In this document: positions 25,200-41,433 of the stretch, one piece after another
Layout of the letters: each line of letters begins with the position of its first letter
Position numbering within the stretch: position 1 is the stretch's first letter
Made by a program: the position numbers and the translations under genes
The notes under the pieces: model-generated
Seen by the model: the letters and a program-made list of their open reading frames with translations, nothing else
Told to the model about the DNA's origin: nothing
The model's database searches: none
Origin: Candidatus Omnitrophota bacterium
GTDB taxonomy: Bacteria; Omnitrophota; Omnitrophia; Omnitrophales; Aquincolibacteriaceae
DNA: 64,000 nt
Assembly (NCBI GenBank): GCA_003140935.1
Contig: PLLJ01000045.1
Span: 2,767-66,766, forward strand
Direction of reading: 5' to 3'

Positions 25200-25300
25200 C
25201 GTTTTCGATGGAATCCCCGGAGTGCCGGGCCCCGTTCTACTGATCTTGATATTTTATAAGCGCCAGGGCCAGTTGTCGCCCGGTATCTTTTCTGTCCTTG
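25200..25300 (-). pseudogene. Duplicated 5' fragment of the phosphoribosyltransferase gene (first ~21 codons plus ~40 nt of upstream similarity), truncated by stops
   Basis: Reverse complement of 25238..25300 translates MFKDRKDTGRQLALALIKYQDQ* versus the true gene MFEDRKDAGEQLALALEKYKDK. About 70% nt identity to 20445..20545. Confidence 0.6.
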
Positions 25301-25375
25301 AACATAACCCCGAGTCCCGAATCCCGAGTCCCTGTATTATTGTGTCTCGCGTCCCGAGTTGCGAGTCCCCCGCTT

Positions 25376-26080: not shown

Positions 26081-26169
26081 GACCCCCGCTCCCCCGCGTC
26101 TTTTTCAGGGAAAAATGCGCCGCGTAAAAAAGGGTATCGCCGTACGCGGCGTCCACGCTGTTTGTTTTG

Positions 26170-27036
26170 TTATAGGTTAATGTTCAGAAAGGCCCGCACG
26201 CCGAGCCCGATCAGAAAAGAAAGGCCGGCGACGCCGAGCGAGATCGAGACCATCTCGACGAACCGTTTGCGGAAATCCAGGCCCTTGGCGACCGAGATGT
26301 AGAAGGTAAACGCAAAGATGATCACCACCGCGGTCACGAGCATCACGGCAAGGGAAACGAGGAGCTCTTTCGATAAAAGATAGGGCAGGACCAGCAGGGT
26401 CACGGTCAGGAGATAGGCGATGCCCGTATAGACCGAGGCCTTGACCGGGTCCTTGCCTTCGCTCTCCGAGCGCGTGGAAAGGAATTCCGAAGCCGCCATG
26501 GATAAAGAAGCGGCGATCCCCGTAATGGCGCCGGCCGTCGCCACGAGCTTGGCGCTCCCCAGCGCGAAGGTGAACCCCGCGAGCGCGCCGGTCAGTTCCA
26601 CCAGCGCGTCGTTCAGTCCCAGCACGATCGAACCCACGTACTTCAAACGCTCCTCGTCGATCATCTCCAGGAGCCGGTGTTCATGCCCCTCTTCGTCGGC
26701 GACGATCCCGGAAGCCTCCGCCACGCTGAGACTCATCAACGCGTAGGCCTCCTGGGCGTCCGCCTCCCCGCCCTCCATGAGCTTGAGACCGAACGTGAGG
26801 CCGAGCACGCGCGCGATAAGGAAATATTTCCATACCGTGGCGCGGTCGGGCAAAAGGTCCCGGCCCGTGTGCTTCTTCCAGATCTCATAATGGCGGAGCT
26901 CGTCGGCGGCGATCTTTTCCAGGACCTCTTTATTTTTCGCGCTTTTTTCGATCGAGGCCAGCTTGAGATAGATGAAATGCTCCGTGATCTCGTTTTTCTG
27001 GAAAGCCAGAATTTTTTCCATGACCGTGTGACTCAT
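26170..27036 (-). CDS. VIT1/CCC1-family iron transporter with N-terminal ferritin/rubrerythrin-like domain
   Basis: N-terminal ELRHYEIW...EEGHEHRL metal-binding helices, followed by 5 TM helices typical of VIT1. Confidence 0.7.
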   Translation of the reverse strand: MSHTVMEKILAFQKNEITEHFIYLKLASIEKSAKNKEVLEKIAADELRHYEIWKKHTGRDLLPDRATVWKYFLIARVLGLTFGLKLMEGGEADAQEAYALMSLSVAEASGIVADEEGHEHRLLEMIDEERLKYVGSIVLGLNDALVELTGALAGFTFALGSAKLVATAGAITGIAASLSMAASEFLSTRSESEGKDPVKASVYTGIAYLLTVTLLVLPYLLSKELLVSLAVMLVTAVVIIFAFTFYISVAKGLDFRKRFVEMVSISLGVAGLSFLIGLGVRAFLNINL

Positions 27037-27143
27037 CGCGTTCTCCTGTTCCCGGACATCATCCCGCGTTCCTTTTTTGAAAAAATACGCCGCTTAAGCT
27101 GAAACCACGTTCCATTTTAGAGGAAGGATGGAATGAAGTCCTC

Positions 27144-28007
27144 TCAATTTTCACTTCTCAAATATCTCAGCCACTCACTTTCCAGATCTTCGACGCTGCT
27201 GATACGGGTTGAATAAGCAAAACTCAGGGCTTCTTCCAGACTCTTTCCATCGCGCAGTTGCCTGCAAAATTCGGTAAAACTGTCTGCGCCGTAATGGGCT
27301 ATTAAAAATCCCACTAAAGAAACCGCTTCTACGTAAAAGATGTCGACCACCTCTTTGCCGTTTAAGGACAGCAAGGTCCTTTTTCCGTCTTGATCGCGTA
27401 TGGAATGAATGGCCACTCTGTTATTGCCGCTGACTTTGCGGATATCCAGGTTCACCACATCGGCCACGGAAAAGAATCTGCCGTTCTTTAAAAGATACTG
27501 GCTGACAACCTTGACCCGTTCTCTTTTAAGCGGTTCCGCCCACTGGGCGACGCCTTCATCCAACCAAGTGGCCACTTCACCTTTAAAGCCCACGAAATCC
27601 CTGAAAATAAGATGCGCCATTTCGTGCGGCAGGAGCGTATCTAAAAACCCCTCCCCATGGGCATAGCTAATGATCCGCTTGTTCCTGTAATCAGCCATCC
27701 CCTCGGACCAGCCGGGCTGATTTGATACTTTCTGATACGTTTGACGATCAGGATAAATATAGATCTTGACCCGATGTTCCCAGGTCCAGAATGCTGAATA
27801 GCGGGGATATCCCAGATCCGAAGCGATCTGAACATAATAAGCCTCGGCCTTATTCAAAACCTCTTGGGCGAATTCTTTATCCTGGGTGAAATAGACCATG
27901 AAGTGTTCGCCTTCTGCTTCTTGCCAATCCTGGGCAAAACATGCCGTCACACCATTGAAAAAACAAAGAATGATAATTACGCCCCGGGTCAGAGATCGAG
28001 TCATCAT
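27144..28007 (-). CDS. Secreted zinc metallopeptidase-like protein (HExxH)
   Basis: ORF track 27144..28151. Likely start MMTRSLTRGVIIILCFF (signal) at 28007. LPHEMAHLIF motif. Confidence 0.6.
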   Translation of the reverse strand: MMTRSLTRGVIIILCFFNGVTACFAQDWQEAEGEHFMVYFTQDKEFAQEVLNKAEAYYVQIASDLGYPRYSAFWTWEHRVKIYIYPDRQTYQKVSNQPGWSEGMADYRNKRIISYAHGEGFLDTLLPHEMAHLIFRDFVGFKGEVATWLDEGVAQWAEPLKRERVKVVSQYLLKNGRFFSVADVVNLDIRKVSGNNRVAIHSIRDQDGKRTLLSLNGKEVVDIFYVEAVSLVGFLIAHYGADSFTEFCRQLRDGKSLEEALSFAYSTRISSVEDLESEWLRYLRSEN

Positions 28008-28246
28008 AACTTTTCTATCTGCGTGTTCCAAGCCCCTGAAACTATACGGGTCCCGCACTGAACAACCCATAAGACCTATTGGAAGTTTAGTGCGCCATGA
28101 TTCTCTTTTTTTAAAAAATAAACGGGTAATCATGACAGTCCAAGTCGCCATTCAAGAAAAAAATGAAGACTTGGGCGGCACTCGCTTTCGATAAAATATT
28201 TTAATGAGAGCCAGTGCCGAGTTACGAGTCCCGAGTCCCCGGAATT

Positions 28247-29383
28247 CTAAAACGTAAGATACGGCCCGGACTTTTTAAGGACCTTCGTCAGTCTGCCAAG
28301 ATCGCCGAGGGACCGGATCCGGGCACCTTCGCTGCGGAAAGCCATGACGCGATCGACCATCACCTGTCCCAAACCCGGGACGCGGAGCATGCGCTGCGGA
28401 TCATCATGATTCAGGTTCACCGGGAAAAACTCCGGATGCGCATGGGCCCACATTTCTTTCGGGTCGATCGTAAGAGAAAGGTTGCCGCCGGGGTCCAGAG
28501 GGATCTCATCCGCTTGAAATCCGTATTTCCGGATAAGCCAATCGGCCTGGTAAAGCCGGTGTTCGCGGACCAGAAGATCCCGGTTGGCGGCCCCCGAGCT
28601 CTCTCCCGGAAGTTCCGGCGCGCCCGCTCCTCTTTGATAAGCGCTGAAGTAGACGCGGGAAAGCCTCAATTGCTTATACAATTTCCAGGAATACCCCAGG
28701 ATCTCCTTGTCCGTTTCCGTAGAGGCCCCCACCACGAACTGGGTGGTCTGCTTGATCCCGGCATACTCCGCTCCTTTCCCGGTCAGTTTGCTGATCAACT
28801 GAATGGGCCGGATAATGTCCCGCAGATAGTTCTTGGTCGTGCTGAGATGTCTGAAATTCGCCTCACCCGCGGTTTCGATATTTAAAGACACGGCCGTCGC
28901 CAATGAAAGACTCTGGCGGATCGCGGTGTCAGACGCTCCGGGAATGACCTTCAGGTGAATGTAACCCCGGAACTGCGACTTGCGCAAATGGAGGGCCACA
29001 CGATTGATACGCTCCATTGTGGTATCCGGGTCCTTTGCGACCGCACTGCTCAAGAAAAGGCCGCTCACCTTCCGCGCGTGATAGTAGGAAAGAAAAGTCC
29101 GGGTCAATTCCTCGGGGCTTAAACTGCATCGCCGGGCGGCCGAACCCGTCCGGAGCGGACAGTATTTACAATTGTTCACGCATTCGTTGGAAAGAAGCGT
29201 CTTGAAGAGGAAGGTCCGCCCGCCATTCGGGAGAATGACCGGATAGATCCATTTGTTTTCCTGGGACCGGCGGCGGTGTTCCTCCGCTCCTGTCGCGCAG
29301 GCGCAAGCTAGGTCATATTGAGCGTCCCGCGCCAGAATGGCGAGCTTTTCTTCCGCATTGGGACTTCTTTGAATGCCGATCAT
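28247..29383 (-). CDS. Radical SAM protein of the putative DNA modification/repair family, with C-terminal helix-hairpin-helix
   Basis: ECVNNCKYC (CxxxCxxC); C-terminal LRVPGLGQVMVDRV HhH. Confidence 0.7.
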   Translation of the reverse strand: MIGIQRSPNAEEKLAILARDAQYDLACACATGAEEHRRRSQENKWIYPVILPNGGRTFLFKTLLSNECVNNCKYCPLRTGSAARRCSLSPEELTRTFLSYYHARKVSGLFLSSAVAKDPDTTMERINRVALHLRKSQFRGYIHLKVIPGASDTAIRQSLSLATAVSLNIETAGEANFRHLSTTKNYLRDIIRPIQLISKLTGKGAEYAGIKQTTQFVVGASTETDKEILGYSWKLYKQLRLSRVYFSAYQRGAGAPELPGESSGAANRDLLVREHRLYQADWLIRKYGFQADEIPLDPGGNLSLTIDPKEMWAHAHPEFFPVNLNHDDPQRMLRVPGLGQVMVDRVMAFRSEGARIRSLGDLGRLTKVLKKSGPYLTF

Positions 29384-29491
29384 AGGCCTTCCGTCGCTAT
29401 CCCCTTTTAATGTCCTACGAGTCCCTAGTCCCGTCTTTATTTATCCCGAGTCCCTGTATTATTGTGTCCCGTGTCCCAAGTGCAGCGTCAT

Positions 29492-30184
29492 TCACTGTGG
29501 GGGCGTGAATTGCGAAAGCTCATAGAGATTCAATTCTTTTTCCAATTCCGAAACTTCTTTAACCTTGCCTTCAAACCCGGCCTCACCGAAGAGCTCATGT
29601 TCCTTATCTTCAAATTGATCTCCCATGGCTTCATATTCTTTTTCAGAAATAAGCCCGCGTAAAGCAGGGAATAAAACCGTGTCTTCCCGCGCGGCGTGAG
29701 GACGGTACATTCTGATGAAGGCGCGCAAAAGACCGGCTAAAGCCTTGGGGTCCTCTTGGCCGCCGGGTCGTTGATCCTTCGAAAGCCGCAGAATGGACTG
29801 GGTAAGTTCACGGCCGGCCACGTGCTGCTGCCGCAAAGTCTTTGTCAGGTCCGTAAGCTTCCCCGCTTTCTCAAAGACCGGGAAGATGTGATCTTCTTCC
29901 AGTTTCTCATGATAGCCTTCGATGAATTCACGGATCATAGTGGCGGATCTGAACAGAACTTCGTACTGAGGGGTTTTATGGTTCTCTATATCTTTCAGCT
30001 CTTGATCATAGATCAAAAGGATCCTTCTCAGGACGCCGTGCTCACGCATAAGATCTTCAACGGGCGATATGGGAATGGCTGCTAATTTTGAGTCGCTCGA
30101 TTTTTCTTCCGCCGGCGTAATGCCTGGGAATGAAAAGACAACGAGTGCTAAAAAAAAGATCGTCACACAGATCGCTTTTTTCAT
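29492..30184 (-). CDS. Secreted hemerythrin-like (HHE cation-binding) domain protein
   Basis: ORF track 29492..30280 starts at a TTG. Likely start MKKAICVTIFFLALVVFSFPGITPA. H/E-rich helices EDHIF...HAARED. Confidence 0.6.
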   Translation of the reverse strand: MKKAICVTIFFLALVVFSFPGITPAEEKSSDSKLAAIPISPVEDLMREHGVLRRILLIYDQELKDIENHKTPQYEVLFRSATMIREFIEGYHEKLEEDHIFPVFEKAGKLTDLTKTLRQQHVAGRELTQSILRLSKDQRPGGQEDPKALAGLLRAFIRMYRPHAAREDTVLFPALRGLISEKEYEAMGDQFEDKEHELFGEAGFEGKVKEVSELEKELNLYELSQFTPPQ

Positions 30185-30702
30185 ACTGCGCCTCCATCTT
30201 TTGGAGCTAATTTTGCGTCTAGGGACCAAGCTCCGGCACCGGCGATGATCAAAAAAAGCAAGCCGAGCACCATCGAACAATCGGTGCGCGCCTCACTGGC
30301 CATAGCCCAGAAACCATAGCGTGGCGCTTGAGCGACATGAAACAACCAAAAATCATGACCCAGCAGAATAGGAATTTTGGTAGAAATGATCGCCACAGAG
30401 ATATTGATCAACAGAGGAATGGCAGCCAATCGCGTACATAGCCCCAAAAGAATAAGCGTGCCAAAAATAATTTCCACACCGCCGACAAAAGGGGCCATGA
30501 TTTCGGGATTTGGAATCCCGATCCTGATAAAACGGCCTACGCCAAGCAGATCAGAAAAGAGGAATTTTTGAATGCCTTCGGAAAGAAATATCCCGCCAAC
30601 CATAAGTCTTATAAAAATGGTCGCCTTAGGAGCTACGGTATGAAACAGGACGGTAGAGAGTAGGTTTAAAATCCTATGGATCATATTTTGTAGCGTATAC
30701 AT
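30181..30702 (-). CDS. DoxX-family membrane protein
   Basis: Four TM helices; ATGA overlap with the downstream gene. Confidence 0.6.
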   Translation of the reverse strand: MYTLQNMIHRILNLLSTVLFHTVAPKATIFIRLMVGGIFLSEGIQKFLFSDLLGVGRFIRIGIPNPEIMAPFVGGVEIIFGTLILLGLCTRLAAIPLLINISVAIISTKIPILLGHDFWLFHVAQAPRYGFWAMASEARTDCSMVLGLLFLIIAGAGAWSLDAKLAPKDGGAV

Positions 30703-31297
30703 TTTTTTTATCCGGTCAATCGGCTCATCTATCTTTTTTCTGACTTTTTTCCTCTCCTCAACCAGGACAATGCCATGATTGATTTAAAAATAAAAAAGGC
30801 GCTACCGCTGTTATGAAGTTATCGACAATAGTAACGCCTCTATTGATAAAAACTCCCCCGCCTGCGATTAAACCGAATGTCGCTTTTGAGGGTAAATGCG
30901 GCATCGCATCCAAGGAATGGCTATTTCTGACGCGGATCGGACAAGATTGTCAAAATCTTGCCGAAGCCGCCCTGGTTTTACATTATTCAAATCAATCGGA
31001 AAACTAGGGCTGCACTAATTTTCTTTTAAAAAAATTTATCGAAAATCAGTGCGTACCAAAGCATTGGGCTTTGATGCATTCAACCGGTCCCCGGGGTGCC
31101 AGCTTGTCCGCCTCTGGCGGAGTACTGTTCTATTCCGCTTCCGGTTGCCATATATCATATCCGCCAAATTTCACGGACGAATCCGTCCACGCTGTGTGGC
31201 GGATATGATATACGGTCTGTCACCGCCCCGCGTCTTTTGTCCTCGTGCCCCGAGCTACGAGTCCCGAGTCCCGTCTTCATTTGTCCCGATTCCCCGT

Positions 31298-31834
31298 TTA
31301 TATCTTTTTCGATTCCTGTTCCAGGCGCTTCATTTCTTCCAGGCTCGAGTTCTCTTCCCCGGCAATCTGTTGTCGGTTGTCCCCATCTTTATTCGAGTCC
31401 CGAGGAGCGAGTCCCGAGTCCCGCGGTGTTTCGTTCGAGTCCCGAGCTACGAGTCCCGAGTCCCGTGGTTTTTCGTCCGTCGTCTTGGCCTCAGGGGAAG
31501 AAAGTCCTTTTTTTGAGTCCTGTTCCAGGCGCTTCATTTCTTCCAGACTCGGGTTCTTTTCCCCGGTAGTCTGTGGTCGGTTGTCCCCATCTTTATTCGA
31601 GTCTCGAGCTACGAGTCCCGAGTCCCTGTCTTTATTCGAGTCCCGAGGAGCGAGTCCCGAGTCCCGCGGCGTTTCGTCAGCCGCAGCTTTATTCGCTCGC
31701 CGGGCCGCGATCGCCGTCCTCGCCGCCCGGATGCCAAAGATCGCGTGCGCCGGAGGCGCTCCGAGAAGAAACGTCCCCGTCACCAGTCCCGCCATCACGA
31801 TTTTAAAAGTTTTCGACATCTCCAACCTCCCCAT
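31298..31834 (-). CDS. Secreted tandem-repeat protein (RDSGLAPRDSNKDGDNR repeats), encoded by a ~230-bp x2 tandem DNA repeat built from the GAGTCCCGAGTCCC motif
   Basis: Signal peptide MSKTFKIVMAGLVTGTFLLGAPPAHA; two ~80-aa repeat units; the underlying DNA is a tandem duplication. Confidence 0.5.
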   Translation of the reverse strand: MGRLEMSKTFKIVMAGLVTGTFLLGAPPAHAIFGIRAARTAIAARRANKAAADETPRDSGLAPRDSNKDRDSGLVARDSNKDGDNRPQTTGEKNPSLEEMKRLEQDSKKGLSSPEAKTTDEKPRDSGLVARDSNETPRDSGLAPRDSNKDGDNRQQIAGEENSSLEEMKRLEQESKKI

Positions 31835-31929
31835 GCTGCGTTGTCCACTTAGGAATTTTATTCAACATGCCCTGAGATTAGAACGGCACTATTCTACGAA
31901 GGAACGGTGAAGAATAAAGTACCATTCCT

Positions 31930-32250
31930 CTATTGTTCTTCCCTCGACCCATTGATCTCATCGCCCCGCGAATATCGTGCGGTGTCTCCGGCCTTATAAT
32001 ATTTTGTGACGGAAATGACGAATTCTAAAAAGCCCCGCGCTTTGAGCTCATCCTTGATCTTCTCCAAAAGCTCCTGTCCCGGATCTTTCTGGCTCCATAT
32101 AAAAAAAGAGAGCGTATCTTTCCGGACGGTCAAATGGTCCACATTCTCATGGGCCCTTAAGATCTGTTCGAGAGGGTGCACATCCTCCAGACGCAGAAAA
32201 CGCGACGGGAATTTGATCTCAATGATCGTTAAAGTGTTTAAAAGTTTCAT
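31930..32250 (-). CDS. Small hypothetical protein (106 aa) tightly bracketed by 34-bp direct repeats
   Basis: MKLLNTLTIIEIKFPSRFLRLEDVHPL...; direct repeats at 31886..31919 and 32252..32286. Confidence 0.45.
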   Translation of the reverse strand: MKLLNTLTIIEIKFPSRFLRLEDVHPLEQILRAHENVDHLTVRKDTLSFFIWSQKDPGQELLEKIKDELKARGFLEFVISVTKYYKAGDTARYSRGDEINGSREEQ

Positions 32251-32358
32251 GCGTACTATTCTACGAAGGAACGGCGAAGAATAAAGCCTTTTGCGGATTA
32301 AAACAACAAACGGAGAAATCAAACAATGGAGTCATCCCTTCCCTCTTTTGGATGGCTG

Positions 32359-32970
32359 TCATCTTTTTTTCAGAGTAGCTTTGTCTTTATAGCTTGTACA
32401 TCGCACATAAAAATCAAATTGAATTAAAAAAAGAAGTATTGCGAACATAATTGTTAGAAATAAATTTTTCGTTAAACTTAATAATCCTATCGCTAATAAA
32501 GTCCCATTTAAAAAAGCCATTAAAAATACGAGGATCGGGAAATGATGCAAAAAACCTTCAAAATGTTTTGGCTCCTCATCGGTTATCGGCAACTTCAAGT
32601 ATTTTGTCAGATCGTCTTCCAGACTATTATCTGTGAAATACTTGCGAGTAAGGTTTGCGCTTTTTGCATAAAAAATCATCCGCATCCTAAGATTCATTAT
32701 GATCGCAAGGAAAATAACTCCTATAACAACTAAAAAAAGAACTATATAGACAAATGGCACTGGCAGATTATACAAGTCCCAAGTGATGGAGTTTATTTCT
32801 CTTGTTAATGCTAAGAATAAAGAAAGCGGAATCGCAATAACACCAAAATAATATTTAAATAATTGATAAAGAATTGTATATAAATGCTCGTAAAGCTCAT
32901 GCAAAAGCTTGTGCTCCTGCATCATAAATTCAAATTCTTGCTGAGCAGATAGTTGAGGATGTTTTTCCAT
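32359..32970 (-). CDS. 4-TM membrane protein, last gene of the AT-rich island cassette
   Basis: AT-rich codon usage; four hydrophobic helices; no recognisable family. Confidence 0.6.
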   Translation of the reverse strand: MEKHPQLSAQQEFEFMMQEHKLLHELYEHLYTILYQLFKYYFGVIAIPLSLFLALTREINSITWDLYNLPVPFVYIVLFLVVIGVIFLAIIMNLRMRMIFYAKSANLTRKYFTDNSLEDDLTKYLKLPITDEEPKHFEGFLHHFPILVFLMAFLNGTLLAIGLLSLTKNLFLTIMFAILLFLIQFDFYVRCTSYKDKATLKKR

Positions 32971-32990
32971 TGCTATCTTTAATGGGGTCG

Positions 32991-34070
32991 TTATTTCCTT
33001 CCCAATCTTTCTAATTCCCGGTTGTATGATTCAAAGCCATGTCTTATGACTATGTTTTGCTCTCGTACTTTTCTTCGAAAAAGTTTAACTTGCCAATCCA
33101 TCCAATTCTGATGAATAAAATAATCCGCAGAAGTCTGCGCGACTCTTGGGTTATAGTTATCGAACGTTTGATTTAAAGGCCGATAACGGCAATCAGCGGT
33201 TTGAACTCCCCATTTTTTACATTCTTTAATTTTTTGCAACATTTCATAAAAATCATGTTCGAAGTTAGATATCATGAACACGTACATCTCTTTTGCTCTG
33301 TATCCGGCTTCGATCAGCATCTCGATTTGTTTTTTTATCATTTGGCGCTGGGAATATCCATGATCCCAAGCGATCCTCGGGTTAAGAAAATGTGCCTGCT
33401 TCAACAATTTCGCCAATTCTGGCGTCAAAAGCCTCCCGTCAATTCCGCACTGACTTTCAGAATAGACCGCTCGCCCATTGCACTTCGCATTCTTCAATTC
33501 ATCCAAAATGTCTTTTATATATGGATTAGCTAAAAGATTATTATCGTAAAAAATTACCCTATTGCTACAAATCTCATCTTTGATACTTTTTTTGGGAATA
33601 AATTCGGGCTCGATTTTCCAAGTTCCGCAGAATTTACATTTTCGCACACATCCTCTTGAAGAATGAACGATCTGATAATCGACATCAACTAAACTGTAAT
33701 CTGGCGCAGATGCTTCCGCCTTTGGATCCACGCCAACAAAAACTTTATCGCATTCAGATTGTTTACAGTGGTCTGGCATGAGTGATGCATAAATGCCACC
33801 GACAGTTATATGGGCCCTGGGATAATTCTTTTTGTAGAATTTCACACTATCCCACACGTATTTGGACCAATAGGTAAATAGAGAGGTAATCTTAATTTCA
33901 TCCGGACAAAACTCTCCAACCAGCTTGTCCCCTCGCACAAGTCGGACTTTATCACCATTTGCTTTGTGGTAACTGGCTAGCTTGAGTAAGCCAACAGGCA
34001 AAAAATCTCGGTGATTTTTGCTTTTTGCTGGAATCGGAAAACCTGGTTCCACTAATAATATTTTAGACAT
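32991..34070 (-). CDS. Radical SAM enzyme with N-terminal B12-binding-like (Rossmann) domain
   Basis: KILLVEPGFP...PVGLLKLASYH...HITVGGIYASLMPD (B12-binding-like); SSRGCVRKCKFCGTW (CxxxCxxC). 8-nt overlap with the upstream HD gene. Confidence 0.75.
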   Translation of the reverse strand: MSKILLVEPGFPIPAKSKNHRDFLPVGLLKLASYHKANGDKVRLVRGDKLVGEFCPDEIKITSLFTYWSKYVWDSVKFYKKNYPRAHITVGGIYASLMPDHCKQSECDKVFVGVDPKAEASAPDYSLVDVDYQIVHSSRGCVRKCKFCGTWKIEPEFIPKKSIKDEICSNRVIFYDNNLLANPYIKDILDELKNAKCNGRAVYSESQCGIDGRLLTPELAKLLKQAHFLNPRIAWDHGYSQRQMIKKQIEMLIEAGYRAKEMYVFMISNFEHDFYEMLQKIKECKKWGVQTADCRYRPLNQTFDNYNPRVAQTSADYFIHQNWMDWQVKLFRRKVREQNIVIRHGFESYNRELERLGRK

Positions 34071-35583
34071 TTTTATTTAACAAGGTTTCTGGTAATTTCA
34101 ATTTAATGCCATTAAATTTTATATTATTCATAACATCTTTGTACTCGGGGAGTTTTCGAGCTAATTGCTCAGGATTAGCCCATCGGACTTTAACTTCAGC
34201 GTAATTATCTTCAAAACGGAAACCATCAAAAATGGCAAATTCCGCCGTTTCTTCGAAAGAACCGTTTCTTTTCCAATCATGTATGCTATCTAAAAAAATT
34301 AATAATACGGCGAAAGGGAAACGAGAAATATTAATCGGGAAGACTTCATGCTTTCTGAGTTCTTTCCAGATTCTGCTGTCATGTAGCGCAATAGAAGTAA
34401 CCGCTGGTATAACATGGGTAACAATTAACGGCCTATTGGGACGGCTGGTCACGACTTTTGATTCGCGTAAAACTCTCACAAGAAATTGAAAACATCCTGT
34501 TACTCCATGCGATCTATGTTTTATCAAATGTTCTCGTAGTATGTCCTTGATACTAGAATCCTCATCTTCTGACATTTCGGGCGTCCAATTATTAAGGATA
34601 CGTTCGGAACAACAATGTCGAATGAAGGATTGTAATTGTATCGCAGCCTGCAAATAATCACTTTTATCAGCGATCTTTTCCAAACCAATTAGTTCTATAT
34701 CCTCATTGTACCCGTACATTTCGCCAATTAAGTTGCCTGCTTTTTGCGAAGGGTAACCAATATCATGGAATATAGAAGTAATTAACCAGATGTATTCGAT
34801 GGAAAAATCTTTTTCCCGAGGAAAAACATTTTTATAATATTTTTGAAATTCCGCATAGTATTTATCGATTATTACGCATCCCATTAACATAACTTGAAAA
34901 GAATGCAAATAATGCTCACGCGTGCCCTTCAATAAGGGCTCATAATATTTCAGCCTCAAGTAAGGTTCCGAAGAATAATGAAATCTTTTATTATCAAAGA
35001 TTTTCTTTATCGTCAAATCAACTAATTCGTATTCCTCCTCTGAGATATTTTTTGTTTTTCTTAATCGTGAATATTTCGATACAAAATCCTTTAGGATTTG
35101 GCGGTATGAAATATTGTCCAAATCGCCAACGTACGATAAAAGCTTATTTGGAACATGTCCATGCTCAGAAGCCGCCTTCTTTTTTATTAGTTGTTTATAT
35201 TTTTTTCCACTAATTGCTTTGGCTTTAATATCAAGAAGTACGGAAAGCGAAGAATTGCTTAACTGAATTAGCCCAAATCCATTATTGAAACATTCAGAAA
35301 ATATCTGATCATATTCATATTCCGGCGGAATATAATAATAAAATTCAAAATTTTTAATTTGTTTTTTTGCTTTGATGATTTCTTTAGCGCCATTCGCTGG
35401 AAAAGCATTGCTTGTATTTATATCAATTGAAATTAATTTGGACTTATAGCGGTAAAGAAGATCTGGGCTCCACGCAATACCTCTTAAAATCCGATCTCCA
35501 GCCTTTTGGGAAAGTCTTCGCCAGTTGTATTTTTTCACTAAAATTTTATTGAGTTTATCTAGAAAAATTTCTTTTTTTGACAT
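34063..35583 (-). CDS. HD-domain phosphohydrolase (506 aa) with dNTP-triphosphohydrolase-like motifs and an uncharacterised ~220-aa N-terminal region
   Basis: TREHYLHSFQV (compare dGTPase RLTHSLEV), SIFHDIGYP (HD), later HRSHGV and LDSIHDW. Confidence 0.7.
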   Translation of the reverse strand: MSKKEIFLDKLNKILVKKYNWRRLSQKAGDRILRGIAWSPDLLYRYKSKLISIDINTSNAFPANGAKEIIKAKKQIKNFEFYYYIPPEYEYDQIFSECFNNGFGLIQLSNSSLSVLLDIKAKAISGKKYKQLIKKKAASEHGHVPNKLLSYVGDLDNISYRQILKDFVSKYSRLRKTKNISEEEYELVDLTIKKIFDNKRFHYSSEPYLRLKYYEPLLKGTREHYLHSFQVMLMGCVIIDKYYAEFQKYYKNVFPREKDFSIEYIWLITSIFHDIGYPSQKAGNLIGEMYGYNEDIELIGLEKIADKSDYLQAAIQLQSFIRHCCSERILNNWTPEMSEDEDSSIKDILREHLIKHRSHGVTGCFQFLVRVLRESKVVTSRPNRPLIVTHVIPAVTSIALHDSRIWKELRKHEVFPINISRFPFAVLLIFLDSIHDWKRNGSFEETAEFAIFDGFRFEDNYAEVKVRWANPEQLARKLPEYKDVMNNIKFNGIKLKLPETLLNKNV

Positions 35584-35593
35584 ATATTTGGAA

Positions 35594-36592
35594 TTATTTG
35601 TTATTTATCATTTGGTCAATGGTGTCTCGAAGTTTTTTTAAAGAAACCAAGATTCCTTCCTTTCTTTTTTTATCAGTTTCCTTCTTTAAATCAAACTCAG
35701 ATAGCTGTGAATTTAATTTATTAATATTTTTAATTAATGAACGGCTTGTTGTTTTGCTGGTCAAGGTGGGTATTTGTACTTTTTTAGTTAAGTCGTTTTT
35801 CAAGTCTTCGATTGTATACTCGATGTTTTCAATAAATCTTTTTGCTGAAGCAGCAAAAATTTCGATTTTGTCCAACTTCTTGCAAGTCATGATGGCATCG
35901 GGTATCCAAAAGAATGCGCGAGTTGTCCCAAGAAGACCTTTTTCTGCTTTCGCTATAAGCTTCCCTCTAATTTCTTCCCTCGAGTGATCCTTAAAAGTTT
36001 GGGGTATGTTTTTTTCTAACTGTTCAACAAAATTTTGTTCTATCTGCACAAGGTAACTGTCATCCAGCTTATTCTCCATAACTTTTTCTTGCGTTTCTTT
36101 ATTAAACCTCAAAAGCCGCAATCTATCTTCGACCTTTTTTCCGTCCATTTTGGTTATCTTTGCTATTTCGCCAATTAGGTCTTGATCGGTTATCGATTTG
36201 TTTTTTCTTTTTATCAAATCAACATAGAATTTTAGCGCTTGGGCTTGCGCCATCGGCTCCCATTGTTCTCTCAGCATGTGAATTTGAAACATTCGTTTTA
36301 AGCCTTCCCCTTGGGCTTTGGCTTTTTTAATGGCCAACACATGGATGGGCACGCCTTCTCGTTTAACTTTTTGAGCAGCTTTAAGCCGTCTTTCGCCATC
36401 GAGCAAAATATATTTTTTGCCTTTTTTGCTATCGTTTTTAAAAACGATCAAAGGCACCATGACTCCAAATTGCCGAATGGATTCCTCTAGTGCTATGAAA
36501 TCCTTATCCTCATAATCCTGGCCTCTGGGATTATCTGGATTGAAAGCTATATCATTAGGAGAAACATACCTGATCTGCTCGTTTTTATTCAT
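35594..36592 (-). CDS. ParB/Sulfiredoxin-like N-terminal domain protein with Lys-rich helical C-terminal half
   Basis: VSPNDIAFNPDNPR...LEESIRQFGVMVPLIV...YILLDGERRLKAAQ (ParB box motifs); GGAGG RBS 6 nt upstream. Confidence 0.75.
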   Translation of the reverse strand: MNKNEQIRYVSPNDIAFNPDNPRGQDYEDKDFIALEESIRQFGVMVPLIVFKNDSKKGKKYILLDGERRLKAAQKVKREGVPIHVLAIKKAKAQGEGLKRMFQIHMLREQWEPMAQAQALKFYVDLIKRKNKSITDQDLIGEIAKITKMDGKKVEDRLRLLRFNKETQEKVMENKLDDSYLVQIEQNFVEQLEKNIPQTFKDHSREEIRGKLIAKAEKGLLGTTRAFFWIPDAIMTCKKLDKIEIFAASAKRFIENIEYTIEDLKNDLTKKVQIPTLTSKTTSRSLIKNINKLNSQLSEFDLKKETDKKRKEGILVSLKKLRDTIDQMINNK

Positions 36593-36761
36593 TCTATACC
36601 TCCATTTATTCCATAAATCATTTAAGATTTTTTATCTTTGTAGACGGAATCGATCCTACTTTCTTTCGTAAGTCAACGGAACACCGTCTGGGGAAAGACG
36701 TTAACTCCCCAATCTTATAGACGCACTCTTCGTTACAGGCAAGGGGAAAAAAGAAACCGCC

Positions 36762-37211
36762 TCAAAGATATAAGGCGCAGACGAAGGCGAGGGCGCCGGC
36801 GACGAGGTTGGCCAGGGTGCCGATGAGCCAGCGCTGGAGGTTATAGGCGGCGATCCGGTTCCTCGCGCTCCAATAGTACATCGGGTCGAGGCCTTCGATA
36901 TGCTCCGGCGTTTTGACGATCAACGCCCACGCCACCCATTTGGAAACGAGCTTGAACGCGAGCCACCCGACGATGATCCTGGCGGAATGCGTGGTGAACG
37001 CGATATAGAACAGGACCACTTCGAGAAGCCCGAGGACTTTGCCGAAGACCGGGCTTACCTGGCCGATGAGGAACGCCTTGGCCAGCTTCTCGTCCACGCA
37101 GTGGTAGTCTTCGCGCTTTCTCAGGAGCCTGAAGAGCCCGCGGATCGCGAACGACAGGAGCACGGCGACGGACAAACCCACCACAAAATGTTTCAGCGCC
37201 AGAAGCTGCAT
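36762..37211 (-). CDS. Membrane protein, unknown (GC-rich host-like composition resumes)
   Basis: Three or four TM helices. Confidence 0.5.
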   Translation of the reverse strand: MQLLALKHFVVGLSVAVLLSFAIRGLFRLLRKREDYHCVDEKLAKAFLIGQVSPVFGKVLGLLEVVLFYIAFTTHSARIIVGWLAFKLVSKWVAWALIVKTPEHIEGLDPMYYWSARNRIAAYNLQRWLIGTLANLVAGALAFVCALYL

Positions 37212-37267
37212 GTGAATCCCCCCTTTTCTTTAAAAAGTTTTTCCGTTTTGGACTAGTACTGTTCTCC

Positions 37268-37412
37268 ATTTGATTTTCCGCCACAATTCTTCGGACGGAT
37301 CCGTCCTTTGGCGGATAGGGGTTAACAGCACTTGTTCTCAAAAAAAACTTAAAGGTTAACAAGTGCTGTCCAAGTCGCCCTTAATAAAATAAAAACGAAG
37401 ACTTGGGCCGTA
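37268..37412. repeat. Composite of an R2 palindromic element (ccgccacaattcttcggacggatccgtcctttggcgg) plus an R1-type H1 hairpin (gtccaagtcgcc...gacttgggc)
   Basis: Inverse-orientation match to 52722..52830. Confidence 0.7.
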
Positions 37413-37452
37413 CTGTGTACCGCATACCCTTAATTTCAAATGTGATGCGGTG

Positions 37453-37926
37453 CTAGAGACCTTGCTGCACGGGCGAGCTTGAGCCTCCGCTGCCCAGCAT
37501 AAAAGTATACTCCGTCGGTGACTCTGCGGAGACATGGACCGGCGTCTCTTTCGAAGCATAGCCCGTAGCACTCAGCGTAAGCAGGACCTGGAAACCGGAC
37601 TGCGGGAAAGGGCTTTTTCCGTCGAACGGGACCTGGCTCATTTCGCCGTCCTTGGTCATTCCGCTGAGCGTGAACCCCATGAAATCTTTCACGGGAAAGA
37701 ACGCGATCCCTTCCCGGTTAACCGCCGCCGTTCTCGTCACGTTAGAGGCCGCTAGCGTATCTCTCATTTCGATCTGTCCCGCGGAAGGCACGACGTTCCC
37801 CGACTCTTCACGCACGATGACCTTGAGCGAGGGCGCTGCCTCCTCAGCCTTCAAAGGCAGGGTCACGCCCCAAAAAACCAGGATCGCCAGTATCCATCCC
37901 GTTCTTAAGGTCCTCAGGTTTCTCAT
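37453..37926 (-). CDS. Secreted protein, unknown
   Basis: ORF track to 38037. Likely start MRNLRTLRTGWILAILVFWGVTLPLKA at 37926. Confidence 0.5.
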   Translation of the reverse strand: MRNLRTLRTGWILAILVFWGVTLPLKAEEAAPSLKVIVREESGNVVPSAGQIEMRDTLAASNVTRTAAVNREGIAFFPVKDFMGFTLSGMTKDGEMSQVPFDGKSPFPQSGFQVLLTLSATGYASKETPVHVSAESPTEYTFMLGSGGSSSPVQQGL

Positions 37927-37989
37927 CCTTTTTTTCTTTTCGTTTAAAAAAAACAGGGGACGGTCCATCGCGTGACGTCCGCCTCTAAG

Positions 37990-38027
37990 ACAAAAAAAGC
38001 GGTTCCCCTTTAAAAGGAAACCGCCGC
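37990..38027 (-). terminator. Rho-independent terminator candidate downstream of the SNase-fusion gene
   Basis: Minus strand reads ggcggtttcctttt-aaa-ggggaaccgc followed by a run of 7 T. Confidence 0.45.
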
Positions 38028-38207
38028 GAAAATGCAAAATACCAGACGTTGTAGCCTTTAAAGGTGCTGGATATCGGGTATTATATACCTCGATTCTTCA
38101 TGAACCCTAGCAAGTAATTCTGATCGAGAGTTGCCCGCCGTTGGCAGGTCCTGGCCGGAAAAAAACAGACGGCATTCAAGTGCGGCTTCATTTCCTTTCG
38201 CGCGCAG

Positions 38208-39560
38208 TCACCTTTGCATACGAACAGCGTGCCCTTTTTCCAGGAGTTCCTGGTTCACGTAAGTCCCGCCGGCCCAAATGTCGACCAGGTACCTGTCGTA
38301 TTTGTCGGACTTGACGGTCTTGATGAGGATTTGCGCGCTGATTTTTCCATCCGCCATTTTCAACATCTTCTCCATGGCTTCTTTCGCTTCTTTTCCTTCC
38401 TTGCTCACGAGCTCGGGGGCGTCGAGACCGCGCAGGCGCAGGGTCTGCACGCTGCGCACGCCGAAGCCCAGATCGACCACCGCTTCGATCGTGTCGCCGT
38501 CGAGAATGCGGAACACCCAGGCGCGGTAAGTAAAAAGGTCGGCGGAGGTCCGTTTCGAGAGTTTGATCAGATCCGAGGGCGCGGAACCCGCTCCCGGGAA
38601 CGCGGGCATCACTTCGATGATCGCCCCTTCCTTGAAACGGAGGTCCCGGGACGTCCGGTAATAATTGGAGAACCCGAGGTCGATCACCGCCTTGCCGGTC
38701 TCGGGGCCCGCGGCGGCTTTGACGATCTTATAAGTCCCGGGCTTCCCCGGCTTGGCCGTGAGCGGGGTTTCTTTCACCGGCGCCGGCGCCTCATTTTTCG
38801 CGGCCTTGCGCTTTTTCACTTCTTCACGTACCTGGTCGCGGGTCCAGTTTTCTTTTTCAGCCATGGCCGCGACCTCGTCTTGCTCCTTGATATCATTCAG
38901 CGAAAGAAGCTCCTCATAATGGCTCCAGCTCAATTTTCCCGCGGGCGGGGAAATCGGGTAATCGCGGGCGAACTGAAGCATGGCGTACAGCTGGGTCTCG
39001 CTGATGGGCAAGTCTCCGGACAATCTTAAGATCACCTGCTTGCCGTAATCCGCGCGCTCCTTGTGCTGGAGCACGTGCTCGTCGATCAGTTTGCCGATCT
39101 CCCACGCCTCGCGGACTTTTTCCTGTTGGGCGGCCTGCTCCACACGGGCCTCGCTGGCCGCGTGGGCCTTGCGAATGGCGGCGACGAGCTGCTCGTAAGT
39201 TCCAACCTGGGTCGCGAGCACTGTAGACGATGGTCCCAAATCGTCACCGGGCCGTGCCTGTTCACGGCGCTCTTCAGCCGTCCCTGTGGGACTGGGAACA
39301 GGCGAGGTCTGGACCTGCGGCGCGGGCACTGTAGACGATTGTCCCAGATCGTCACTGTGCCGTGCCTGTTCACTGGGAACAGGTGCGGGGACCGGCGGGT
39401 TCATCGAAGGGACCTGCCCTGAGCTTGCCGAAGGGGCCTGCGAAGACGAGGACTTCAAGTCCCCGCGAGCGTGCTGAGGAACCGGGTCCTCAGCCTGCAA
39501 GGACGGGGATATCCAGAGGAGCGTGAGGAAAATACCGAGGGTGATCGTCGTCGTCTTCAT
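38208..39560 (-). CDS. Secreted multidomain protein: signal peptide, low-complexity duplicated segment, YhcG/DUF1016-N-like helical domain, and C-terminal staphylococcal-nuclease (SNase)-like domain
   Basis: MKTTTITLGIFLTLLWISPSLQA signal. Two copies of ARxxDDLGxSSTVxAxQV. SNase-like GDTIEAVVDLGFGV...LRGLDAPE...DKYDRYLVDIWAGG. Confidence 0.65.
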   Translation of the reverse strand: MKTTTITLGIFLTLLWISPSLQAEDPVPQHARGDLKSSSSQAPSASSGQVPSMNPPVPAPVPSEQARHSDDLGQSSTVPAPQVQTSPVPSPTGTAEERREQARPGDDLGPSSTVLATQVGTYEQLVAAIRKAHAASEARVEQAAQQEKVREAWEIGKLIDEHVLQHKERADYGKQVILRLSGDLPISETQLYAMLQFARDYPISPPAGKLSWSHYEELLSLNDIKEQDEVAAMAEKENWTRDQVREEVKKRKAAKNEAPAPVKETPLTAKPGKPGTYKIVKAAAGPETGKAVIDLGFSNYYRTSRDLRFKEGAIIEVMPAFPGAGSAPSDLIKLSKRTSADLFTYRAWVFRILDGDTIEAVVDLGFGVRSVQTLRLRGLDAPELVSKEGKEAKEAMEKMLKMADGKISAQILIKTVKSDKYDRYLVDIWAGGTYVNQELLEKGHAVRMQR

Positions 39561-39680
39561 TCCAAAGGTCCTTTCTTCTATGTAAGGCGTACGGTGTACG
39601 GAGTACGGCGTCCCGCCTGTCGTTCCTGTTCAAAAAAGGCGGGGCAGTGCGTCCCAACCTTCCCATCCATTTTAAAGGCC

Positions 39681-39830
39681 GGTTGAGACTGTCCTAATAC
39701 TTATCAATTTCCGCGCAACGGAAATTGGGGCTGCCCAAGTCAGCCATTCTGGAAATGAAACAAAAGACTTGGACTGCACTAAACTTCATTTAAGCTTTAT
39801 GGGTTGTTCAGTGCGTCCGTTTAAGGAGTT
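39681..39830 (+). repeat. R1 structured intergenic repeat, second full copy
   Basis: About 90% identity to 14582..14735 across all three hairpins; its 3' end supplies the stop codon region of the adjacent gene. Confidence 0.8.
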
Positions 39831-40159
39831 TCCTGCGTCTCTTCCGGGTTCGTTTCTTCTTTTACCGGGGTCCCGAGGGGTTGGGCGGCCTCCAGATCGT
39901 CGATCCGGGATTCCAATTCCGCGTCCTGCCGGACCATGTACTTCATTTTGGAATCGTTCGTGTCGAGCCTGTTTTCCAATTGGCTTATTTTTGCCGCGAG
40001 GGCTTCCATTTTCGAGCCGCTCGCCTTGGCCTTGTTTTCCAATGCGTTCACCCTGGCCTCCAAAATGTCCGTACGGAAAGTATCCTCGACCGCGAGGACC
40101 CGGGTACCCGGAAGAAGCCCAAAGATCAGACAGAACGCGATTAGCAGTTTCTTCTTCAT
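39821..40159 (-). CDS. Secreted coiled-coil protein
   Basis: Signal MKKKLLIAFCLIFGLLPGTRVLA; heptad-rich body. Confidence 0.55.
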   Translation of the reverse strand: MKKKLLIAFCLIFGLLPGTRVLAVEDTFRTDILEARVNALENKAKASGSKMEALAAKISQLENRLDTNDSKMKYMVRQDAELESRIDDLEAAQPLGTPVKEETNPEETQETP

Positions 40160-40334
40160 TTCAGATCTCCTCTTTTTTTAGGGGATGCCTGCGGACAAAC
40201 GGGAAAGCCGGGGATAGAAGGAAGAACGTGAGGAGCCTGCCGGAAGGAGCTGTCTTTTTCATGACAAGAAGCCCAAGGTTCACGGAACGATAGACGGAGA
40301 ACGATCCGTGAGGCGTTCCCCGTTCGCACGGTTT

Positions 40335-40739
40335 CTAAATACTTTTCTGCGTTTCTTGCGGGTCCGTTCTTTTTTTAGATTTGTCCCCGGAGTTTTTCGT
40401 CTCGTTTTGGGCGGTCTCCAGATCGCTGACCCGGGATTCTAATTGGATCTCGTTCATCCGGGCCGCCAGGTTTCCCATTTTGGAGGTATTCGCGCCGACC
40501 CTGCCTTCCAATTGGTTCATTCTTGAATTTGAGATGTTCGCGCCGATCCTGCCTTCCAATTGGCTCATTCTTGACTCTAAGGTTCGCATCTTCGCGTCGC
40601 TCGCTTTAGCCTTCTCTTCCAATTCCTGCACTCTGTTGTTTACAGAGTACGTGCGGTTCGCATCATCGAACGCAAAGACCCGGGCACTTGGAAGAAGTAA
40701 AAAGACCAGACCGGACACGAGAAGTATTTTCTTGTTCAT
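40335..40739 (-). CDS. Secreted coiled-coil protein, tandem paralogue of 39821..40159
   Basis: Signal MNKKILLVSGLVFLLLPSARVFA; shares the EEKAKASxxKM...SQLEGR pattern and a similar upstream region (ttcagNtctcctttttt). Confidence 0.55.
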   Translation of the reverse strand: MNKKILLVSGLVFLLLPSARVFAFDDANRTYSVNNRVQELEEKAKASDAKMRTLESRMSQLEGRIGANISNSRMNQLEGRVGANTSKMGNLAARMNEIQLESRVSDLETAQNETKNSGDKSKKRTDPQETQKSI

Positions 40740-40830
40740 TTCAGCTCTCCTTTTTTATTTCATGAATGCGAACGGACGAGAAAGCCGGAGCTTCGTTTTA
40801 ATCTCTTAAGTTAAACCCGTTCTGCCGCCG

Positions 40831-41433
40831 CTAGTTCCCGGGAGGCGGCGAAACGGCCTGATAATAAACACCGTTCGCTCCGAAGTAGGGCCGGTACCAC
40901 GAAGTCCCGCATTGATAGGCCATGACATTATTCACATTGACGGCCGAACATACGCCCGGAAGCACCGAGACTTGAGTGCCTACCGGCGCCGCCGCGGGGA
41001 CGACCTGCTGGACCACGGTCGTTGCGGGTTGTTCCACCACGACCGTTGCCGGCTGCTGCTGCGCGGTCGCGGCCCCCACCATCGTCCCCATCATCATGCC
41101 GGCAAGGGCATCGTCGGCGGCTCCATATCCCCATCCGGGGCCCCACCCGCCGTTCCACCCGTCGACGGTGTAATTGTTGGTGGTGTTGCCGTTGTTATCA
41201 TTGTTGTTATTCCTTCGATGATTGTCTCCATGGTTCCACTGCCCGCCGTGGTATTCGCCGCTTCCGTGTTCCCCCGGCCTCTCACCGCGGCCTCCGCCGC
41301 CAAGATTTCCGCCGCGTCCGCCGCCGCTCCAACCCCCAACCCCGCGTCCGCCGCCCCGCGCATACGTATCGCCGGAGCCGAGCGAAAAGATCATCGCGAT
41401 CAACACCATCATTATAAGTTTATTGTTTTTCAT
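40831..41433 (-). CDS. Secreted glycine-rich protein (GGWSGGGRGGN..., Asn-rich stretch, two C-terminal Cys)
   Basis: ORF track to 41766. Likely start MKNNKLIMMVLIAMIFSLGSG at 41433, overlapping the upstream gene's end. Confidence 0.5.
   Translation of the reverse strand: MKNNKLIMMVLIAMIFSLGSGDTYARGGGRGVGGWSGGGRGGNLGGGGRGERPGEHGSGEYHGGQWNHGDNHRRNNNNDNNGNTTNNYTVDGWNGGWGPGWGYGAADDALAGMMMGTMVGAATAQQQPATVVVEQPATTVVQQVVPAAAPVGTQVSVLPGVCSAVNVNNVMAYQCGTSWYRPYFGANGVYYQAVSPPPGN

Follow-up and report, generated by a model that had tools for sequence, protein, structure and literature searches.

A window of 64,000 nucleotides (the whole stretch of DNA analysed here, from contig PLLJ01000045.1 of a Candidatus Omnitrophota bacterium) contains a gene for a small radical S-adenosylmethionine (radical-SAM) enzyme, named rSAM in this work. 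The genes found around members of its family point to a DNA-modifying enzyme that would act as the self-marking arm of a restriction-modification-like cassette, a reading to which even chances are given. This reading is favoured because the enzyme stands in the position of a methylase, is found in fusions and as lone viral copies and has a precedent in ParB-methyltransferase proteins, because the protein is basic with a conserved arginine-rich C-terminal helix, and because a cassette of ParB-like protein, HD-motif protein and rSAM recurs in three unrelated contexts. The wider proposal is more tentative and is held at somewhat less than even chances. It states that a possibly cobalamin-dependent rSAM makes an undescribed carbon-based DNA modification and serves as an interchangeable self-marking module for at least six machineries (DISARM, Pbe/CxC-DndE, ParB/DGQHR-SNF2, GHKL, HerA and ParB-HD) in anaerobic bacteria, archaea and their viruses.

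The rSAM gene and the parts of its product discussed below are the following:

32991..34070, minus strand: radical-SAM enzyme rSAM, 359 amino acids, an ATG-to-stop open reading frame (ORF) that overlaps the upstream gene for a 506-amino-acid protein by 8 nt.
33696..34070, minus strand: N-terminal flavodoxin/B12-binding-like domain, about amino acids 1-125 of rSAM, assigned by sub-threshold Pfam B12-binding and fold matches.
33627..33650, minus strand: CxxxCxxC motif for the [4Fe-4S]/SAM cluster, C141, C145 and C148 of rSAM, assigned by alignment.
32994..33179, minus strand: conserved basic C-terminal extension, amino acids 298-359 of rSAM, with the basic helix FRRKVREQNIVIRHGF.

The region 32991-34070 is a real gene and a chance ORF is excluded, because a protein database search with rSAM returned about 2400 relatives (clusters at 90% identity), the best 120 of which are 65-78% identical with a query coverage of 89-100% (98-100% in all but two). 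The identical sequence is also present on 5 public contigs. The original prediction, made from the letters of the window, had described a 359-amino-acid protein at this place; both the ORF and all the strings that it quoted were recovered on the minus strand, with LLVEPGFP at amino acids 5-12, HITVGGIYASLMPD at 87-100 and GCVRKCKFC at 140-148. The relatives carry only the public labels 'hypothetical', 'Fe-S oxidoreductase' or 'cobalamin-dependent protein', and among their recorded sources are Elusimicrobiota, Nanoarchaeota, Zixibacteria, Atribacterota, Omnitrophota and Bacteroidota.

When one genome per species was scanned, 144 rSAM loci were detected, nearly all of them in uncultured, largely anaerobic lineages. 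The carriers are methanogens, anaerobic methanotrophic archaea (ANME)/Methanoperedens, Bathy-, Thor- and Hadarchaeota, DPANN archaea, the candidate phyla radiation (CPR), Chloroflexota, Planctomycetota, Nitrospirota and others; cultured carriers include Methanobrevibacter, Methanosphaera stadtmanae and an enrichment of Ca. Velamenicoccus archaeovorus. ORFs were called in 79 non-redundant loci, their neighbours were clustered and representatives were annotated. The gene upstream of rSAM was co-directional in 63 of 70 loci and lay within 60 nt in 56 of 70, commonly with a 4-nt overlap; a close co-directional gene downstream was found in only 16 of 69 loci. Thus, operons that contain rSAM almost always end with it.

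The upstream partners vary and, as annotated, all of them are DNA-centred modules of restriction type. A GHKL ATPase (HATPase_c_3) together with a PP_RS20740-like protein of about 330 amino acids was found beside rSAM in 15 loci, and a single GHKL or ParB_N protein of 450-610 amino acids in 16 loci. PbeA, PbeC and PbeD (PADLOC, E to 1e-231; dnd_assoc_4) were found in 14 loci. DISARM DrmA, DrmB and DrmC (PADLOC, E to 1e-91) were found in 10 loci, where they are accompanied by DrmE (Pfam DrmE_C above cut-off) or by a protein of 1100 amino acids that is weakly related. Five loci combine rSAM with a ParB-like protein, a 140-amino-acid protein, an SNF2 helicase and a further ParB-like protein, encoded in this order. 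HerA-like, ABC-ATPase and DndB-HEPN partners were also detected, and the HD-type 506-amino-acid partner of the window occurs in 3 of about 85 contexts. Genes for type I restriction-modification, Mrr, SNase and NmeDI-like proteins are often found nearby. A neighbour-joining tree of rSAM interleaves the operon types, with viral copies nested among them, which indicates that partners have been exchanged around a constant enzyme.

DISARM is defined with a DNA methylase. CxC/Pbe cores have been reported to be linked to cytosine methylases or to phosphorothioate-modification (Dnd) genes, and the modification genes listed for these systems include no radical-SAM enzyme (PMC10853773). No DNA-methylase family was present among the recurrent Pfam families of the 110 other ORFs of 21 DISARM/Pbe-type rSAM loci. 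The series DrmA-DrmB-DrmC-DrmE(-like) is immediately followed by rSAM in 10 archaeal or bacterial loci, and in Pbe-type loci rSAM often stands directly after the DndE-like PbeD. In both operon types rSAM occupies the position expected for a modification methylase. A hidden Markov model (HMM) of C5-methylases gave only two full-length matches in about 90 rSAM loci. A C5-methylase gene lies directly upstream of rSAM in a Methanobrevibacter locus (L041) and three ORFs upstream of it in a viral locus (L099).

Fusion proteins were also found. Protein P0264 (777 amino acids) joins a complete DNA cytosine-5 methylase (M.HaeIII, E 3.9e-30; Pfam DNA_methylase) to rSAM, and P0282, from a phage-like contig, carries a short C5-methylase-like domain (motifs LFSGTG, PPCQRFS and ENP) fused to rSAM. 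In P0236 rSAM is fused to a ParB-like domain and a gene for an Mrr_cat nuclease follows within a few bases, so that these two genes may form a minimal modification-plus-nuclease pair. Fusions of ParB_N to methyltransferases are a known phage and plasmid theme. Copies of rSAM that are 44-52% identical were found on four IMG/VR contigs, where the gene stands by itself among small phage ORFs or has a DndE-like protein as its only companion, and Marinitoga camini virus 1 carries a lone relative with 35% identity. Viruses typically take a protective modification enzyme and not the restriction arm, and by analogy the lone viral rSAM copies show the pattern of orphan protective modification enzymes.

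The window cassette lies in a low-GC island of 4.4 kb, the features of which are listed here:

32300..36750: low-GC island, horizontally acquired, with a four-gene operon, delimited by the GC profile.
35594..36592, minus strand: ParB/Srx-fold protein, 332 amino acids, first gene of the operon (Pfam ParB_N 47.7 bits, 1.6e-12; cut-off 26.3).
34063..35583, minus strand: 506-amino-acid partner with HD-type metal-ligand motifs, assigned by motif conservation.
32359..32970, minus strand: hydrophobic membrane-like protein, 203 amino acids, an ORF within the island 20 nt downstream of rSAM.

The GC fraction of the island is about 0.27-0.47 (roughly 32300-36700), compared with about 0.53-0.61 in most of the flanking sequence. 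The tightly packed minus-strand operon has the order ParB-like gene, 506-amino-acid HD-motif gene, rSAM and 203-amino-acid membrane-like gene. The placement of rSAM in an island together with a ParB-like partner, as originally predicted, is borne out by the low-GC profile and by the ParB_N match above cut-off. No tRNA was found within 25000-42000, no integrase among the island genes and no att-like repeat flanking the island.

The trio of ParB-like, 506-amino-acid and rSAM genes recurs in two other unrelated contexts, which makes three in all. One copy lies inside a conjugative element of Ca. Velamenicoccus archaeovorus and the other in another metagenomic genome, between TPR and archease/RtcB genes. 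Since both are without the 203-amino-acid gene, the core of the cassette consists of three genes. The 203-amino-acid protein gave no family match in Pfam, NCBIfam, PADLOC or PHROGs, and its gene was not beside rSAM in any other locus examined, including these two, no dedicated homologue search having been made; its membership of the system is doubtful, and it could be independent cargo or an accessory specific to the strain.

The ParB protein of the window carries the arginine-patch motif GERR (GxRR) in LLDGERRLKAA, a motif known in ParB proteins for the binding of cytidine triphosphate (CTP). It is 34% identical over 229 amino acids to a 479-amino-acid ParB_N protein that directly precedes rSAM in another locus, and its ParB_N domain matches the phage ParB-methyltransferase fusions of phrog_498 (E 7.8e-10). 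A parS-like palindrome was sought near the ParB gene and none convincing was found. The 506-amino-acid protein belongs to a rare family (11 clusters among 5.8 billion sequences), in whose 11 sequences H224, H227, H273-D274, H359, H401 and D432 are invariant and D402 is nearly so, residues that look like an HD phosphohydrolase site. It gave no match in Pfam (E<=10), PADLOC or PDB sequence and profile searches, and its structural model has a predicted local distance difference test score (pLDDT) of 64.5, too poor for fold assignment. The HD partner named in the original prediction therefore holds as an invariant H...HD...H...HD...D pattern, a motif-level call, because the Pfam, PDB and fold searches brought no confirmation of it. 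The N-terminal alpha/beta domain (amino acids 1-120), which is well modelled, gave faint fold matches to 2ph7 (E 0.019) and to EndoMS, HincII and Ecl18kI (E>1), and in this model it bears a faint resemblance to restriction endonucleases.

The residues C141, C145 and C148 of rSAM are identical in 90 of 90 aligned sequences (86 family members and 4 distant relatives), and more than 60 positions are at least 97% identical among the 86 family sequences. Column conservation in the N-terminal domain marks K16-S17-x-N19-H20, T62-S63-L64-F65-T66-Y67-W68 and G91-G92. The isoelectric point (pI) is 9.2 for the whole protein and 9.9 for amino acids 290-359, and R332, R336, N339 and I340 of the arginine-rich C-terminal helix are at least 97% conserved; the basic C-terminal extension is thus a candidate nucleic-acid-binding surface.

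Matches to curated profiles were below cut-off for Pfam Radical_SAM (PF04055; 27.6 bits, E 3.9e-6, cut-off 29.5) and Pfam B12-binding (18 bits, E 0.0026, cut-off 32.1). The best NCBIfam matches are families of radical-SAM proteins with a B12 domain, at E>=1e-4 and about 20 bits against cut-offs of 251-481, and among these no known cofactor-maturation family that rSAM could be assigned to was found. In PHROGs rSAM matches phrog_9298 'radical SAM domain protein' (E 2e-38). No PADLOC model matches rSAM, its 545-amino-acid Rhizobium relative or the Marinitoga virus copy, and PDB sequence and profile searches with rSAM gave no match. The description of rSAM as not viperin-like agrees with this PADLOC result and with the lack of a viperin among the 50 best PDB fold matches. 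The protein is compact, as had been pointed out, but how unusual this is depends on the comparison: its whole family has a length of 360-440 amino acids, and the NCBIfam B12-domain/radical-SAM models TIGR04013 and TIGR04014 span 382-434 positions.

An AlphaFold model of rSAM was built from a 38-sequence alignment (pLDDT 80.7; predicted template modelling score, pTM, 0.77) and searched against the PDB with Foldseek. It consists of a five-stranded flavodoxin-like N-terminal domain, a radical-SAM core shaped as a partial barrel and, towards the C-terminus, a long basic helix (amino acids 325-344). The closest solved fold neighbours are AprD4 (6fd2), an MtaB model and TokK (7kdx). The N-terminal domain alone matches the corrinoid-binding domains 7te2 (AerR), 1y80, 4jgi and 7xcn (MttC) with E values of 2e-4 to 4e-3, and such domains rank above CheY-like receivers among its fold matches. 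The two-domain architecture, a B12-like segment followed by a radical-SAM core as first read from the sequence, is considered real because the AlphaFold model and its Foldseek neighbours agree.

The classical B12-binding signature is DxHxxG-x41-SxL-x26-28-GG. In the rSAM family T62-S63-L64 and G91-G92, separated by 26 residues, are essentially invariant and correspond to its (S/T)xL...GG half, but DxHxxG is absent and the histidine loop is without the Asp and Gly; H20, conserved in 80 of 90 sequences, lies about 3 residues nearer than the signature position expected. The class B enzymes of known structure are not known to rely on DxHxxG either. AprD4 is a B12-domain enzyme that is not known to use cobalamin, and for this reason a B12-like architecture alone does not prove cobalamin use. 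As far as we know, CPR and DPANN organisms do not make cobamides, so that an obligatory B12 requirement of rSAM becomes less likely, although this is a weak argument. The class B (cobalamin-dependent) label that the enzyme had been given stands at fold level for the N-terminal B12-like domain, with cobalamin dependence as a possibility. Membership of the methylthiotransferases (MiaB/RimO/MtaB) was considered and rejected: the only N-terminal-domain cysteines that recur in the family are C102 (76%) and C107 (84%), C55 not being conserved, so that a conserved Cys triad is lacking, Pfam detected no TRAM domain, and the MtaB model is a fold neighbour only.

A profile search of 1.84 billion representative sequences yielded 190 clusters (50% identity) at E<=1e-30 and 1039 at E<=1e-10, with lengths of mostly 350-440 amino acids. 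The family is 50-78% identical across many bacterial and archaeal phyla, and identities of 70-78% were observed between phyla as distant as Nanoarchaeota, Saccharibacteria and Elusimicrobiota. Taken with the low-GC island, this high identity, which extends across domains of life, points to a horizontal spread of recent date.

Several observations were made on particular members and neighbours of the family. In the distant relatives P0238, P0267, P0275 and P0280 a large insertion interrupts the radical-SAM core; in the first three it lies inside or right after CxxxCxxC and has intein-like junctions (e.g. GCVNKC/LEGN...VHN/CKFC, slashes marking the junctions), and in P0280 it is placed some 80 residues beyond this point. 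Genes of DNA metabolism in mobile elements are preferred by inteins at their essential sites. Plasmid pCC511_1 of Rhizobium sophoriradicis (locus L089, 88763-100665) carries a 545-amino-acid rSAM relative, 29% identical, in a large island with genes for a ParB-like protein, a 139-amino-acid protein, a DEAD/SNF2 helicase, a ParB_N protein, a DGQHR (DpdB-like) protein, the rSAM relative itself, a GHKL-like ATP-binding protein, a PIN-like protein and a further protein that binds ATP, which shows that the module exists in aerobes too, in a longer form. The family of about 330 amino acids mentioned above is the commonest one directly upstream of rSAM (L065 2572-3558, L078 545-1543 and 13 similar genes). 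It has the conserved motifs LTLPG...D and YNLDFxG, its sole match is a weak one to the uncharacterised NCBIfam family PP_RS20740, and PDB sequence and profile searches with these partners gave no match. The 140-amino-acid protein of cluster c14 (L005 5090-5512 and relatives), encoded between ParB-like and SNF2 genes, has the PD...(E)xK-like pattern PDVFAQG...IGEAKT, which was recognised by eye without a profile match and suggests a minimal restriction-endonuclease fold.

A mechanism can be proposed on this basis. C141, C145 and C148 would hold the [4Fe-4S] cluster, as the invariant motif and the fold indicate, and SAM would be cleaved to a 5'-deoxyadenosyl radical. The radical, possibly with cobalamin in the B12-like N-terminal domain, may then leave a carbon-based mark on a base of the DNA; C-methylation or a different alkylation is most plausible, with cytosine as a possible target. 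Having no variable target-recognition region, rSAM would be brought to DNA by the protein encoded just upstream. For the window cassette, it is envisaged that the ParB-like protein loads on DNA as a nucleoside triphosphate (NTP)-dependent clamp, together with the 506-amino-acid HD-motif protein, which could be a phosphohydrolase or nuclease arm that attacks unmarked DNA. Across the family, restriction-type machinery of at least six kinds would share this one conserved enzyme.

Several points weigh against this proposal. The support for DNA modification comes from gene context throughout, and rSAM is unusually conserved and without a variable target-recognition domain, unlike typical restriction-modification methylases. 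The methylase fusions P0264 and P0282 are each found on one contig, where an assembly or gene-call artefact is possible. About 55 C5-methylase matches of 700-930 amino acids were suspected to be more methylase-rSAM fusions, and a local HMM search has revealed that only P0264 is one, which leaves the fusion evidence thin. Methylases could be encoded elsewhere in the genomes with DISARM/Pbe-type loci, contig ends truncate several of the loci, and the Pfam count on the 110 ORFs covers recurrent families only. In the window cassette no nuclease was recognised by any profile, the HD assignment being made by motif, and the trio of ParB (CTP-binding), HD (phosphohydrolase) and rSAM would fit a nucleotide pathway too.

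Such a pathway would make rSAM a nucleotide-directed effector that turns a free nucleotide (e.g. CTP) into an antiviral analogue or destroys a nucleotide pool, in the manner of prokaryotic viperins. The HD protein would handle the phosphates, and the nucleotide would be sensed or supplied by the ParB-like NTPase. The local trio of a ParB_N protein with GERR, an HD-motif protein and rSAM agrees with it, and other radical-SAM defence systems exist, such as Ophion (bioRxiv 10.1101/2025.09.30.679545). However, rSAM has no likeness to the models of prokaryotic viperins (pVips) or to the viperin fold, the HD partner is present in 3 of about 85 contexts while rSAM is constant, and the methylase replacement in DISARM/Pbe, the fusions with C5-methylase and ParB/Mrr and the lone viral copies would be left unexplained, so that this alternative is considered rather unlikely. 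The original prediction had allowed a nucleotide or a nucleic acid as substrate; the latter has gained from the methylase position, the fusions and the lone viral copies, and the former is kept as this rival. It is distinctly unlikely that rSAM attacks invader DNA by radical hydrogen abstraction, producing breaks or lesions once an upstream DNA-tracking partner recognises it. A DNA-damaging effector would suit the constant coupling to DNA-tracking ATPases or clamps, the basic surface and the many two-gene forms (ParB_N or GHKL protein plus rSAM) without a recognised nuclease, but viruses are not expected to carry a lone DNA-damaging enzyme, the methylase fusion points to marking and not to killing, and most operons already have nucleases (PbeA HKD, DrmC PLD, Mrr).

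A protein or RNA substrate, with rSAM maturing its upstream partner or modifying tRNA/rRNA in the manner of methylthiotransferases, is regarded as very unlikely. The MtaB methylthiotransferase model among the best fold neighbours and the frequent translational coupling with the upstream gene speak for it. Nevertheless, the N-terminal Cys triad and the TRAM domain are missing, the contexts are all DNA-centred, and the upstream partners (HD-motif, GHKL, ParB, DrmE, PbeD, HerA and DndB proteins) are mutually unrelated and hence cannot be one common substrate. Finally, it is hardly credible that rSAM is an ordinary housekeeping or cofactor-biosynthesis enzyme that lies in the island by chance: the public labels 'Fe-S oxidoreductase' and 'cobalamin-dependent protein' would accord with such a role, but the low-GC island and the identity of 70-78% between distant phyla indicate recent transfer, no metabolic genes recur beside rSAM and no curated family cut-off is reached.

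If the DNA-marking reading holds, the logic of the system is familiar, being restriction-modification-like, and the enzyme class in the modification slot is new. The prokaryotic self-marking chemistries that we know of are few: SAM-dependent N6, N4 and C5 methylation, phosphorothioation and 7-deazaguanine insertion. The rSAM family is named by none of the models in Pfam, NCBIfam and PADLOC, and in a literature search no publication was found that connects a radical-SAM enzyme with DISARM, Pbe/CxC-DndE, ParB/DGQHR or MORC-type modules; besides viperins, the only radical-SAM defence system found in the literature was Ophion, which has a different architecture. DNA marking by rSAM would bring in a DNA modification of a new class, and an enzyme class that is new to self-marking, with an oxygen-free radical route to epigenetic self/non-self marking, and would explain the DISARM- and Pbe-like operons without a methylase. 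It would also bear on sequencing-based methylome calls and on the genetic tractability of methanogens, ANME/Methanoperedens, CPR/DPANN and other anaerobic carriers, and a compact DNA-modifying tool of about 360 amino acids could be obtained.

Other features of the window were also recorded. A second radical-SAM gene (28247-29383, minus strand) lies outside the island. Its product ends in a helix-hairpin-helix tail, and its match to TIGR03916 'putative DNA modification/repair radical SAM protein' (E 4e-83) reaches 279.8 bits, below the cut-off of 343.5. A 450-amino-acid protein (38208-39560, minus strand), encoded 1.6 kb upstream of the island in DNA of normal GC, combines a DUF1016_N/PADLOC PDC-S02 candidate-defence domain with a C-terminal SNase-type nuclease (phrog_452). 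At the downstream island edge a 32-nt direct repeat (31888-31919 and 32255-32286, 97% identical, 367 nt apart) brackets a small TTG-start ORF (31930-32322), and no third copy of the repeat was found at the other island edge. An ORF of 178 amino acids (31298-31834, minus strand) has a hydrophobic N-terminal stretch and repeated units of the type PRDSGL(A/V)(P/A)RDSNKDGDNR; its DNA contains tandem repeats of 39-42 nt at 31392-31476 and 31583-31665 with a strong AT skew, and its region varies between otherwise identical public contigs.

Among the known systems, pVips and OpnA of Ophion are radical-SAM enzymes in anti-phage defence, and rSAM has no likeness to them beyond the superfamily core. A B12-like domain is missing from the pVips, and their substrates are free NTPs. 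In Ophion the radical-SAM enzyme is combined with PHP and PRTase proteins (bioRxiv 10.1101/2025.09.30.679545). The best structural neighbour over both domains is the radical-SAM diol dehydratase AprD4 (E 3.6e-9, template modelling (TM) score 0.66-0.67), which is 13% identical to rSAM, acts on an aminoglycoside and has an unrelated genomic context. The class B methylase TokK shares with rSAM an N-terminal Rossmann/B12-like domain directly before the CxxxCxxC core (Foldseek E 1.7e-7, TM score 0.60), whereas rSAM is about 300 residues shorter, has no C-terminal domain of the TokK type and shows about 13% identity. Class B methylases usually act in secondary metabolism, in contrast to rSAM with its DNA-centred defence operons and a possible use of cobalamin.

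DISARM comprises DrmA, DrmB and DrmC with either DrmE and DrmMII or DrmD and DrmMI. Ten rSAM homologue loci share DrmA-B-C-E(-like) with it and have rSAM at the place of the methylase; these loci are without the defining methyltransferase, and the window operon is without Drm genes. With the PbeABCD/CxC-ABC-ATPase-DndE systems (PMC10853773) the family has in common the 14 loci in which rSAM adjoins PbeA, PbeC or PbeD, whereas the window cassette has no ABC ATPase. The ParB_N-DNA methyltransferase fusions (phrog_498) use an N6, N4 or C5 SAM methyltransferase, and the window has a radical-SAM protein, separate genes and an HD-motif protein between them. As in the rSAM cassette, a ParB/Srx domain is coupled in these fusions to a DNA-modifying enzyme, an activity that is predicted here for rSAM, and P0236 is a direct rSAM-ParB fusion.

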